Origin: Verrucomicrobiota bacterium
GTDB taxonomy: Bacteria; Verrucomicrobiota; Verrucomicrobiia; Limisphaerales; UBA11358
Direction: 5' to 3'
Length of the DNA stretch: 64,000 nt
Assembly (NCBI GenBank): GCA_021324235.1
Contig: JAJPJM010000153.1
Location: forward strand, 471-64,470
The position numbers were made by a program, and so were the translations under genes. The number at the start of each line of letters is the position of its first letter. Positions within the stretch are counted from its first letter, which is position 1. Below are positions 8,106-10,952 of the stretch, piece after piece. Under the pieces are notes generated by a model, which did no database searches, was not told where the DNA came from, and saw nothing but the letters and a program-made list of their open reading frames with translations.

Positions 8106-10952
8106 CTACACCACAATCAAGTTCACCAGCTTTTTCGGCACGACGATGACCTTCTTGATGGTTTTGCCGGCGATGAAGGGTTGCACTTTTTCCGAGGCCC
8201 GGGCGGCGGCTTCGAGCGCGGCGTTGTCGGCATTGACCGGGACCTTGATGACGTCGCGGAGTTTGCCATTCACCTGCACGGGAATTTCCATTTCAGATTC
8301 CACGAGCAGGGCGGGATCGAATCTGGGCCAGCAGGCGTAAGCCAGATTCGGGAGTTGAAGGTTGAAGGTTGAAGGTTGAAGGTTCAGCTTCACCCAAAGT
8401 TCTTCCGCCAGATGCGGCGCGAAGGGCTGGAGCAAAATCAGGAAATCGCGCAGCACGGTAGCGGGCTTGGTTTCCCAGGTCATCGCCTCGTTCACAAAAA
8501 CCATGAGCGCGGAAATGGCCGTATTGAAGCGCAGGCCGTCGAGGTCTTCGGTCACTTTTTTGATGCACGCATGGAGCGTTTTTAATTGGGCTGGCACCGC
8601 CGAAACATCTTTGATCGCCGGACTTAATTTTATTAAATCGAGCAACTCTCCGCGTCGCTGTGTCTCTGCGGTCGTCTCCGCCTGTTCGAATTCCGTTTCG
8701 CTCGGTTCATCCACGAACAGCCGCCAGACGCGCCCGAGAAAACGGTAGACGCCCTCGACGCCCTTGGTGCTCCACGGTTTCACCATTTCCAGCGGGCCCA
8801 TGAACATTTCAAAAAGGCGCAACGCGTCCGTGCCGACCTCCTGGACGGGCACGTCCACGGGAATCACGTTGCCGCGCGATTTGGACATCTTCTGGTTGTC
8901 CTCACCGAGCACCATGCCCTGGTTGACGAGTTTGAAGAACGGTTCGGGCGTCGAGACATAACCGAGATCGAACAAAACCTTGTGCCAGAACCTGGCGTAG
9001 AGCAGATGCAGGACGGCGTGTTCCGTGCCGCCGACGTATAAATCCACGCCGGGCGTGGATTTAGGAGTTGGAAGTTGGGAGTTGGGAGTTGGGGAACCCA
9101 TCCAATAAGCCTCGGCTTCCCTGCTGACAAAGGCAGTGGGATTTTTTGCGTCGAGATAGCGGAGGTAATACCAGCAACTGCCGGCCCATTGGGGCATGGT
9201 GTTGGTCTCACGCTGCGAGCCGTCGGGCAGGTTCACCCAATCCTTCGCCCGGGTGAGCGGCGGTTCACCGGTGGCCGTCGGCTTGTAATCGGTCAATGCC
9301 GGCGGCAGGACGGGTAATGCGGATTCAGGCAGGGCTTCGTGATAGGACTGGCCGTCCGGGCCTTTTTTCCAAACAATCGGGAATGGTTCGCCCCAATAGC
9401 GCTGACGCGAAAAAAGCCAGTCGCGGAGTTTGTAATTGACGGTCTTTTTGCCGAGCCTCTTGGTTTCCAGCCAGTCGGTGATTTTCCTTTTGGCTTCAGC
9501 GGTCGGCAAACCGGTGATGGAAATCTCCGGGCCGGTTGAATTCACGGACGTGCCGTCTCCGACAAAGCCATGCCAATCGGTTTTCAGATCGGGTGGCTGA
9601 ACGACCTGAACTATCGGCAATTTGAATTTGGTGGCGAACTCGAAGTCGCGGGTGTCGTGGGCCGGTACGGCCATGATGGCACCGGTGCCGTAGCTCGCCA
9701 AAACATAATCGGCAATCCAGATAGGAATCTTTTGGCCATTGACGGGATTGATCGCGTAAGCGCCGGTAAACACGCCGGTTTTTTCCTTCGCCAGTTCGGT
9801 CCGTTCCAAATCGGATTTTTGGGCAACTTCGGTTTTATATTGTGCAATGGCCGCGCGCTGTTCCGGCGCGGTGATTTGATCAACAAGTTTATGTTCGGGT
9901 GATAGCACCAGGTAGGTCGCTCCGAACAAGGTGTCCGGGCGGGTAGTGAATACTGTAATTCGGAATTCGGAATTCGGAATTCGGAATTCGACTTCGGCTC
10001 CCTCACTCCTTCCGATCCAATTCCGCTGCATTTCCTTGAGCGAATCGGTCCAGTCGATCGTATCGAGGTCGTTGAGCAGTTTTTCGGCGTAAGCGGTGAT
10101 GCGGAGCATCCATTGGCGCATCGGTTTGCGCACTACGGGAAAACCGCCGACTTCCGATTTGCCATCCACGACTTCTTCGTTGGCGAGGACAGTGCCGAGT
10201 TGCTCGCACCACCAGACAGGCTGTTCGCTGACGTAGGCAAGGCGCTTGGAATCGCGATAGGCGCGGCGCGCGGATTCGATGTTTTGGTGGGGCGAGGCTA
10301 CTGACGAGCCATCTCTGGAATCGGCTCGCGAGGACGCTCGCCCCACCGACTGCGATTCCAATTCCGTCGGATACACCAAGGTTTCAATCGGTTCAGCCTT
10401 GTTCGTTTCCGGGTTGAACCACGAGTTGTAAAGTTTCAGGAAAATCCACTGGGTCCATTTGAAATAATCCGGGTCGGTGGTGGCGAGTTCGCGCGACCAG
10501 TCGTAGCTGAAACCGAGCGATTGAATCTGCCGTTTGAACGTGGCGATGTTTTGCTCGGTGGTCTGGCGCGGATGCTGGCCCGTTTTGACGGCGTATTGTT
10601 CGGCGGGCAGGCCGAAGGCGTCCCAGCCCATCGGGTGCAGCACGTTGAAGCCGAGCGCGCGTTTGTAGCGCGCCAGAATATCCGTGGCGGTATAACCTTC
10701 CGGATGGCCGACGTGCAATCCCGCGCCGCTCGGATACGGGAACATGTCGAGGATGTAAAATTTCGGCGGCAACTGCGTTGCGGCCACCGGGCCGGGCACC
10801 ATGGCATCGGCACCATGCCGTTGGGCAAAGGGATGGTTTTCCGGAATTTTTTCGCCGGGATTAAAAGCGCGAAAAGTCTGCTGTGCCTCCCAAATTTTCT
10901 GCCATTTGGGTTCAATCAGATGAAATGGATATTGCCGGCGGCTGCTCGCCAT
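8106..10952 (-). CDS. leuS: Leucyl-tRNA synthetase
   Basis: ORF 8106..11033(-). Start moved to ATG 10950-10952 ([22 protein letters not shown]). HVGH (HIGH-type), TTRPDT and KMSKS motifs are present. Short repeat-derived segments are listed separately. Confidence 0.95.
8350..8384. repeat. Heptanucleotide tandem repeat (GAAGGTT)x4 plus a degenerate copy, in frame inside leuS
   Basis: gggagtt gaaggtt gaaggtt gaaggtt gaaggtt. On the coding strand it encodes ..[14 protein letters not shown]... Confidence 0.85.
9064..9098. repeat. Heptanucleotide tandem repeat (GGAGTTG)x4 plus a degenerate copy, in frame inside leuS
   Basis: ggagttg gaagttg ggagttg ggagttg gggaacc. It encodes [14 protein letters not shown] just upstream of the conserved ..[16 protein letters not shown] block. 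Confidence 0.85.
9957..9991. repeat. Heptanucleotide tandem repeat (AATTCGG)x4-5, in frame inside leuS
   Basis: aattcgg x4 then aattcga. It encodes [14 protein letters not shown] immediately before the TTRPDT motif and contains five EcoRI-type GAATTC sites. Confidence 0.85.
10286..10347. repeat. 62-bp palindromic element with 11-bp terminal inverted repeats, translated as part of leuS
   Basis: GGTGGGGCGAG ... CTCGCCCCACC with an inner stem CGAGCC/GGCTCG. It encodes [23 protein letters not shown] related element lies at 34139-34216 in miaA. Confidence 0.7.

Follow-up and report, generated by a model that had tools for sequence, protein, structure and literature searches.

A REP-doublet family of Limisphaerales-type Verrucomicrobiota with in-frame copies in leuS, miaA and other genes

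Why do two housekeeping genes of one bacterium each carry a palindrome within their reading frames? The question is raised by a 64,000-nucleotide stretch of DNA from a Verrucomicrobiota bacterium (GenBank assembly GCA_021324235.1, contig JAJPJM010000153.1, positions 471 to 64,470; hereafter, the window), in which one palindromic segment lies in leuS, the gene for leucyl-tRNA synthetase (LeuRS), and another in miaA, the gene for tRNA dimethylallyltransferase. A previous reading of this DNA, made from sequence only, had described a 62-bp segment with perfect 11-bp inverted repeats and an inner stem, a 78-bp relative sharing a 15-mer with it, and the in-frame position of both; each of these descriptions held up when we re-examined the window (Table 1). 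Our preferred explanation, to which we assign a probability of roughly three in four, is that both segments are copies of one family of paired, inverted repetitive extragenic palindromes (REPs), that is, a REP-doublet or REPIN-like family of Limisphaerales-type Verrucomicrobiota, and that their mobility depends, or once depended, on a REP-associated tyrosine transposase (RAYT). We refer to this family as family 1.

How are the two segments built? The leuS copy is bounded by the perfect 11-bp terminal inverted repeats GGTGGGGCGAG/CTCGCCCCACC, with an inner stem of GAGCC/GGCTC, and its layout in the sense of the gene is A..B' (arm types are defined below). The miaA copy has 10-bp termini (GGTGGGGCGA/TCGCCCCACC) and arms of ~25 nt that are 72% complementary. 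Each of its arms differs from the C-type consensus by four mismatches, and the right arm is chimeric, joining a C'-like inner part to an A'-like terminal 15 nt. It is because of this chimera that the two window copies have the 15-mer GACGCTCGCCCCACC in common, and its structure hints at exchange between copies. The exact terminal 10-mer occurs in the window only at the four arm positions; lone 10-mers with at most one mismatch were not above chance there (5 found, 8.8 expected). Predicted folds of the two copies, calculated for each strand, have energies of -37 to -46 kcal/mol (z = -4.0 to -6.1); none of 200 shuffles folded as well as either copy. The paired arrangement of the arms is non-random, unlike the single motif, and the weight of the argument therefore rests on the pairing and on the family census. 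Rfam 15 yielded no match anywhere in the window at the gathering score, and the surroundings of the leuS copy gave none at E <= 1.

Both elements are read through by long open reading frames (ORFs); the mechanically called leuS ORF extends over 8106..11033 on the reverse strand. In the frame of its host, the miaA element reads WGETPSSPSFKTEEGKSGLERRSPH. The left ends of the two copies fall in different codon phases, and their orientations relative to the host gene are opposite. The closest relatives of both proteins come from metagenome-assembled genomes (MAGs) of Verrucomicrobiota/Limisphaerales, and the window MiaA is 100% identical to a protein of a MAG that NCBI labels "Verrucomicrobiae bacterium." Alignment to solved homologues sets both insertions apart: the miaA element coincides with a 17-residue gap against the Bacillus halodurans MiaA structure 2QGN, and the leuS element lies within a lineage-specific segment of ~59 aa that is absent from Thermus thermophilus LeuRS between residues 145 and 146.

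Table 1. Family-1 elements, their host genes and other repeat features of the window
Feature	Coordinates	Strand	Remarks
leuS, leucyl-tRNA synthetase	8106..10952	-	ATG start at 10952 inferred
REP doublet, family 1, in leuS (62 bp)	10286..10347	host gene on -	identified by inverted repeats and fold
leuS copy, left arm	10286-10310		type B (GGTGGGGCGAG-GCTACTGA-CGAGCC)
leuS copy, spacer	10311-10322		ATCTCTGGAATC
leuS copy, right arm	10323-10347		type A, as reverse complement
miaA, tRNA dimethylallyltransferase	33583..34572	+	element in frame
REP doublet, family 1, in miaA (78 bp)	34139..34216	host gene on +	C-type lineage, partly decayed
miaA copy, left arm	34139-34164		
miaA copy, spacer	34165-34190		
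miaA copy, right arm	34191-34216		
Tandem heptamer array in leuS	8354-8384		
Tandem heptamer array in leuS	9064-9093		
Tandem heptamer array in leuS	9957-9990		
Tandem heptamer array in miaA	33596-33623		
Canonical GTAG REP of another family, abutting leuS	8086..8109	-	GTAG-CGGCTTTC-GGCA-GAAAGCCG
Second copy of the leuS-abutting GTAG REP	55162-55185	+	
Intergenic GTAG REP cluster (two or three REPs)	4140..4209	+	follows terminator-like hairpin 4104-4135
REP of the intergenic cluster	4140-4165	+	G-GTAG-GGCGCGGTG-TCC-CACCGCGCC
REP of the intergenic cluster	~4189-4209	+	GTAG-TCCCGCA-A-TGCGGGA

Does the family extend beyond this window? We scanned one genome per species with the pattern GGTGGGGCGA-N30-60-TCGCCCCACC and recovered at least 116 elements in at least 114 stretches, so that the further copies anticipated from the sequence do exist. 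Of the 80 records listed, about 66 bear the label Verrucomicrobia, subdivision 3 or Limisphaerales. Several copies per MAG are present among the matches listed, with up to seven or eight copy-bearing contigs from a single MAG (CAZIFU01 has seven contigs as well as its leuS; JACRJZ01 and JACQWK01 have four each). The census also contains unrelated matches (planctomycete GGTGGGGCGATTGC.. elements, one actinobacterial match, L097). Arm density exceeds background by ~0.4 per 10 kb, and two doublets occupy the 64-kb window.

The copies have a common anatomy. A family-1 arm is ~25 nt long and reads GGTGGGGCGAG-N7-9-CGAGCC, with three main core types: A (CGTCCTCG), B (GCTACTGA) and C (ACTCCGT). Among the elements listed, the combination A-B was found 47 times, C-C 22 times, A-A 18 times and B-B never. 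The two arms stand tail-to-tail with their heads outward, and this layout is kept across at least 116 copies; spacers measure 0-30 nt, the upper bound being the limit of the census pattern, and 16 listed copies are minimal, 50-bp elements with a spacer of 0 nt. Each arm is itself a REP, with a GGTGG head followed by GGCGAGxx, a loop of 3-4 nt and xxCGAGCC, which together make an imperfect 8-bp stem. The variable pairs covary (CG/CG, AC/GT, TG/CA): of 186 arms, 129 have Watson-Crick pairing at both and the other 57 at one, leaving no arm in which neither pairs. A tandem G.A/A.G mismatch is conserved at two central positions of the stem. The head, G-GTGG-G, is one base off the GTAG tag; we read it as a probable GTGG variant of that tag, which would place family 1 in the GTAG-tagged REP superfamily. 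Sibling REPs that begin GGTAGGGCG.. are found at the same LeuRS and MiaA sites in relatives, and the window's own intergenic REP at 4140-4165 begins likewise.

What do the borders of the copies reveal? Target-site duplications, looked for as direct repeats of at least 3 bp at the element boundaries, were present in 0 of 102 copies, and matches of 1-2 bp were at chance level; the flanks of family-1 copies contained no extended palindrome. The flanks are biased in composition: pyrimidines prevail on the left side (76% at -1), purines on the right side (80% at +1). Some copies of one MAG have spacers in common (L016/L042b and L042a/L073), and L016/L042b share flanks as well.

How often do the copies reside inside genes? 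ORFs that continue for at least 60 codons beyond the element in both directions span 55 of the 116 listed copies. We scanned 40 of these 55 ORFs against Pfam and, separately, the ORF of the replication-restart helicase PriA in L100. Pfam domains lie to either side of the element, or surround it, in HsdR, MutS, acetyl-CoA synthetase (Acs), PheT, RibD, UbiD, Mfd and HrpA; in an RlmD-like tRNA/rRNA U5-methyltransferase, an EcoEI R subunit, an alpha-2-macroglobulin and a GH106 enzyme; and in LeuRS, PriA (L100), a XerC-like recombinase/integrase, PdxJ, Fmt, PanC and ArgJ. HflX, with domains only upstream of the element, is a plausible further host. For L001, L040, L047, L091 and L098 a position upstream of the true start is more probable; therefore, the firm intragenic share of the elements listed is at least ~17%, with 47% as its upper bound. 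The suggestion that these palindromes colonize coding sequences in the manner of the Rickettsia palindromic elements (RPEs) is thus supported, as many copies lie in frame in bona fide genes. All three codon phases are in use among the ORF-spanned copies (22/18/15), giving peptides that, according to phase, start GGAS.., VGRA.. or WGE.. at one end and finish ..LAPP, ..SPHQ or ..RPT at the other. Because one DNA sequence is read as different peptides, the conserved unit is the DNA and not the peptide.

How long have the two insertions been in place? Six LeuRS orthologues from different species, with 75-83% amino acid identity, carry the element at the same offset and in the same A..B' layout; the leuS insertion is therefore older than these species. 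It measures 62 bp in five of them and 74 bp in L197, where the left end, including the head, is duplicated in tandem over 12 bp (~1089-1112). Mean pairwise identity among the six is 96% in the arms, 92% at flanking codon positions 1 and 2, 66% at flanking third positions and 51% in the 12-nt spacer. The window and L114 are identical at 50 of 50 arm positions, with 59% identity at third positions. Conservation extends even to the noncomplementary 9-nt cores of arms A and B, and the arms as a whole evolve more than 10 times slower than adjacent synonymous sites, a pattern that points to selection on DNA or RNA or to gene conversion. For MiaA, a metagenome scan yielded ~21 close relatives, and the copy is orthologous in four genomes, at 78 bp in all, with related spacers and zero to four mismatches per 26-nt arm. 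At one of the miaA loci (L077, 2598-2627), 15 bp of the left head are repeated in tandem; together with the L197 duplication and the chimeric arm, we take this as a sign of exchange and slippage at element ends. In both the leuS and the miaA sets, orthologues that carry a homologous peptide also keep the inverted repeats in their DNA. Other orthologues, including P0032, P0017, P0062 and P0066, have no insert at the LeuRS site. On these alignments, the leuS copy is old and vertically inherited with arms nearly unchanged, and the miaA copy is old and decaying, with a recombinant right arm.

Are the LeuRS and MiaA positions special? Relatives have inserts at three sites in LeuRS, one of them before FTTRPDT, and at one site in MiaA, after RLTGK.FS. 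At the LeuRS position of the family-1 element, at least four further REP families are represented by tail-to-tail dimers in other lineages, and some lineages are empty; in L202-L205, GTAG-headed hairpins at this site were confirmed in the DNA (-48 to -68 kcal/mol). One LeuRS-orthologue dimer (GTGVSPV..HGRDARAT) encodes the same peptides as the GTAG-19 REP of Opitutus terrae. The MiaA site is occupied in relatives by family-1 doublets or by family-1 singlets fused to another GTAG dimer, and in others by a nested third element, a 130-nt hairpin cluster, a singlet remnant (KAQCAVPT) or tandem heptamer arrays. Taken together, the LeuRS and MiaA codons have been occupied by REP dimers of at least five families across lineages (P0001-P0240; DNA L115-L134, L202-L205), and these sites behave as insertion or replacement hot spots.

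The heptamer arrays form a second class of repeat in the same genes. The window has four, near-perfect and 4.0-4.9 units long, and all four lie in the two genes that hold REP doublets (chance ~1e-5). Period 7 also dominates across 1.5 Mb of related DNA, where 70 of the 78 tandem arrays with at least 3.5 copies have it; they comprise 4-5 units, with more than 40 different units among them. ORFs contain 39 of these 70, and some are paired in inverted orientation, forming hairpins (L195, 3005-3095). In the LeuRS "AEVDFQVAGSGEKIRV" loop, as at the MiaA site, the heptamer units differ and the total length is constant; the arrays therefore replace sequence rather than add to it. An 11-residue LeuRS peptide encoded by a heptamer array was considered as an insertion and rejected, as it aligns without gaps to T. 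thermophilus LeuRS. A literature search found no description of such arrays. They are reminiscent of the short tandemly repeated repetitive (STRR) heptamers of cyanobacteria.

Which transposase could have moved the doublets? The PriA ORF of L100 (3096-6056) contains a family-1 doublet at 5778-5847 and also, in frame, a whole Y1/RAYT-like gene at ~3840-4300 (Pfam PF01797; HUH motif MPDHVHLLI; YIWDNP), placed between the 3'-DNA-binding domain and the helicase domain. This gene is flanked by GTAG REPs (GTAGCACCCGCGTCCCGCGGGTG) at ~3767-3790 and ~4340-4362, with heads outward as in the doublets; JGI (Joint Genome Institute) gives its homologues the name "REP element-mobilizing transposase RayT." Database proteins that combine PF01797 with DEAD-helicase or alanyl-tRNA synthetase (AlaRS) fragments (P0248, P0357; P0328, RecG-like; P0341, AlaRS-like) suggest that in-frame RAYT insertions into genes recur. 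Among the RayT homologues from the protein search, only P0255, P0277 and P0345 have GGTGG-type, REP-derived termini. REPs of the form GGTGG-CGCAAGCG-TCC-CGCTTGCG and a covarying variant (..AACCG..CGGTT..) cluster around the P0255 and P0277 genes, and the sister REP GGTGGCGCAAGCGTCCCGCTTGCG near RayT agrees with family-1 arm A at 14 of that arm's first 16 nt.

In the DNA around P0255 and P0277 the RayT gene sits in the nuo operon. In L198 (9930-10720; also L199, L200 and L201) it lies between nuoG and nuoH with a 4-nt overlap with each, and six to eight REPs surround it in L198; they are of two types that covary, GGTGGCGCAAGCGTCCCGCTTGCG and GGTGGCGCAACCGTCCCGGTTGCG. On the L198 contig, ORF6N, YhcG and RhuM-like genes are likewise found between genes of this operon.

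How might such a family spread and persist in genes? Family-1 elements would be nonautonomous and would move, or have moved in the past, as single-stranded DNA, the work being done in trans by a REP-associated tyrosine (HUH/Y1) transposase; such a mechanism would leave no target duplication. We infer RAYT-dependent mobility from the head, the hairpin formed by each arm, the existence of a sister REPtron and the absence of target duplications. A doublet can form one long hairpin or, alternatively, a small hairpin in each arm. As the arms are G+C-rich and nearly stop-free in all frames, copies that keep the frame and land in permissive surface loops could survive purifying selection; location and frames show indirectly that selection keeps only frame-preserving, stop-free insertions in permissive loops. 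The inserts would then be read as 17-26 extra residues rich in Gly, Ser, Arg, Ala and Pro, in a frame set by the host gene, and copies in essential genes may be trapped there, imprecise deletion being lethal.

Several observations weigh against this account. A model in which the copies are passive passengers leaves the strong conservation of the leuS arms unexplained, since 96% identity that includes the noncomplementary cores is not expected of a passenger that decays neutrally. Searches of 1.4 Mb of related loci with regular expressions and phmmer found no RAYT flanked by family-1 arms, and the only RAYT in those loci (L100) belongs to another REP family. The copies compared gave no direct evidence of recent transposition; the most similar pair from one MAG, L016 and L042, shares flanking sequence and may reflect a segmental duplication. 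Finally, element lengths that are multiples of three are not enriched among ORF-spanned copies relative to the others, which leaves frame preservation unexplained.

Could the hairpins be there because the host needs them? They may be host-selected cis-elements that act within genes at the level of DNA or RNA, for instance as pause sites for ribosomes or RNA polymerase, RNase or mRNA-stability signals, sites for gyrase or nucleoid proteins, or RAYT-dependent beneficial sites. This is compatible with a REP origin and, in our estimate, unlikely, if by no means negligible. It would explain why copies are retained at fixed codons, why the leuS arms of six species are so much more alike than synonymous sites or the spacer (96% against 66% and 51%), and why the same LeuRS and MiaA loops hold REP dimers of at least five families in many lineages; the conserved, nonpairing 9-nt cores of arms A and B mean that more than hairpin stability is preserved. 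Yet the element also occurs in unrelated genes, in both orientations and all phases, and in intergenic DNA; the miaA copy decays, with zero to four mismatches per arm; and many orthologues have no insert (e.g., P0032, P0017, P0062 and P0066). Gene conversion from other copies, of the kind hinted at by the chimeric miaA arm, could keep arms uniform by itself. A related and equally doubtful idea is that intragenic doublets are not neutral passengers but elements maintained on fixed "landing pads." It draws on the slowly evolving arms, the re-occupied LeuRS and MiaA codons, and the RAYTs in frame in PriA and, apparently, RecG and AlaRS. Two scenarios would fit: RAYT-dependent, site-specific replacement or gene conversion with essential genes as undeletable havens, or hairpins that serve the host by acting in translation or in the control of mRNA, the heptamer arrays then being another product of the same machinery.

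Two further explanations fare much worse. Classical miniature inverted-repeat transposable elements, or MITEs, derive from DDE-type insertion sequences and have terminal inverted repeats and target duplications; bacterial examples are Correia/NEMIS, Nezha and RUP. Were family 1 such a deletion derivative, moved by cut-and-paste through its terminal repeats, the perfect 10-11-bp termini, small size, multiple copies and variable interior would all be as expected. However, no target-site duplication was seen in the 102 copies, each arm is a covarying stem-loop with a GTAG-like head, the related head and stem flank Y1 rather than DDE transposase genes, and the zero-spacer, 50-bp copies are two REPs and nothing else. 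We consider a MITE origin very improbable, and the "MITE/REP-like" label of the sequence-only reading accordingly survives in one half: the family is dispersed and REP-like, with at least 116 copies and arm hairpins, and since target duplications were not found it is not a classical MITE. IS200/IS605-type elements have hairpin ends, use single-stranded DNA, make no target duplication and insert beside a fixed tetra- or pentanucleotide. Family 1 resembles both MITEs and IS200/IS605 miniatures in being small, nonautonomous, hairpin-forming and multicopy, but differs from IS200/IS605 derivatives in having only the pyrimidine/purine flank bias in place of a fixed insertion tetra- or pentanucleotide. 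The idea that the peptide is the selected unit, either as a functional module or as an ancestral low-complexity loop of LeuRS or MiaA that happens to be palindromic, is the least probable of all and largely refuted. Homologous peptides do recur in orthologues (e.g., WGETPSSP..SPHQ); however, three phases and two orientations yield unrelated peptides in other genes, conservation is at the nucleotide level and includes third positions while spacer-encoded residues vary freely, relatives have other REP families or heptamer arrays at the same codon, and the segment is absent from solved homologues.

How does family 1 compare with systems already described? GTAG- and CGTC-tagged REPs were defined by Di Nocera, De Gregorio & Rocco in 2013, with GTGG named as a head variant (PMC3733652). 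In that work, GTAG REPs form head-to-head and tail-to-tail homo- and heterodimers, the tail-to-tail dimers with variable spacers, and ~75 in-frame singlets and dimers of 7-50 aa are reported from O. terrae in HrpA, UvrA, ligase, RF3, FtsY, tRNA enzymes and others (PMC3733652). Intragenic GTAG REPs in a verrucomicrobium have therefore been known since 2013, and family 1 is not in those lists: no family-1 match was found among the O. terrae peptides in the PMC3733652 supplement. A literature search likewise found no paper on such repeats in Limisphaerales. Both sets are tagged stem-loops that form dimers and have in-frame copies in housekeeping genes. The O. terrae REPs are linked to RAYT genes in REPtrons, whereas for family 1 only sister REPs were seen next to RayT genes in the loci compared. 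The two also differ in sequence family (GGTGGGGCGAG-N8-CGAGCC for family 1) and host lineage (Limisphaerales/subdivision 3 MAGs), and family 1 is distinguished by its conserved tandem G.A mismatch and an unusually high intragenic share of 17-47%.

REPIN-RAYT systems were defined in Pseudomonas as extragenic (Bertels & Rainey 2011, PMC3116915). Like family 1, REPINs consist of two inverted REPs with a short spacer, form one long hairpin and are dispersed within the genome, where they are inherited vertically over long periods. Mobilization by a single-copy Y1 transposase is presumed for REPINs and may apply to family 1; unlike REPINs, family 1 has many copies in the reading frames of genes. RPEs are ~100-150 bp long, A+T-rich and confined to Rickettsia, as summarized from Ogata et al. 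2000 in PMC3733652, where some (RPE-4 and RPE-6) are assigned to the CGTC-tagged class, without a dedicated transposase. As far as that account of them goes, they too are palindromes that lie in frame in unrelated housekeeping genes, at permissive surface positions and in varied frames. Host phylum, G+C content and length set family 1 apart from them, and the likeness is one of functional analogy only.

REP-type hairpins are thus routine in the coding sequence of widespread, mostly uncultivated soil and freshwater Verrucomicrobia, in genes that include aminoacyl-tRNA synthetases and DNA-repair and replication-restart enzymes. Intragenic REPs give rise to spurious "hypothetical" peptides and to odd insertions when sequences are aligned, and they may cause contig breaks in MAGs and broken gene calls. 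Orthologous copies offer a rare chance, provided by nature, to gauge selection on a hairpin that looks selfish against host synonymous sites. If the arm conservation seen in leuS is general, it bears on whether REP and REPIN-RAYT systems are parasites, commensals or host functions.

Canonical extragenic REPs are present in this genome too (Table 1); those of the intergenic cluster at 4140..4209 resemble family 1 in the head and in the first part of the stem. In the GTAG REP that abuts leuS, the TAG of the head is the leuS stop codon.

In every relative that we retrieved, leuS is called as two genes, and the top LeuRS matches are all shorter than 800 aa. A two-subunit LeuRS is known from Aquifex. 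A natural split of LeuRS caused by the repeats was considered and set aside as a claim: most cases are explained by frameshifts of the long-read type (L202, L203) and by short contigs, and in-frame stops are present only in L195, L204 and L205. In L195 (2969-2977), TAT is replaced by TAG in the conserved YWM motif and an ATG follows; L205 has a CAG-to-TAG change at ~2463; and L204 has a TGA at ~4150, within the repeat insert. L196 (2330-2420) has a frameshift in an 8-mer repeat, and the frameshifts of L202 and L203 are typical of long-read errors. Any of these changes may represent a real split, a suppressed stop or an error.

Other repeats in the window are of different kinds. At 43960-44036, A+T-rich, inverted, hexamer-like arrays, (GATTAA)n/(TCTTAA)n, face each other with 26-33 nt per arm and at most 25 nt between them, a pair unlike the G+C-rich REPs. 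A 240-bp unit is duplicated in tandem (2.0 copies, 91%) at 11560-12035 in the ORF 11037..12047, beside a gene resembling those for extracytoplasmic function (ECF) sigma factors, and a 216-bp unit is repeated 3.9 times (89%) at 38298-39145, also inside an ORF.

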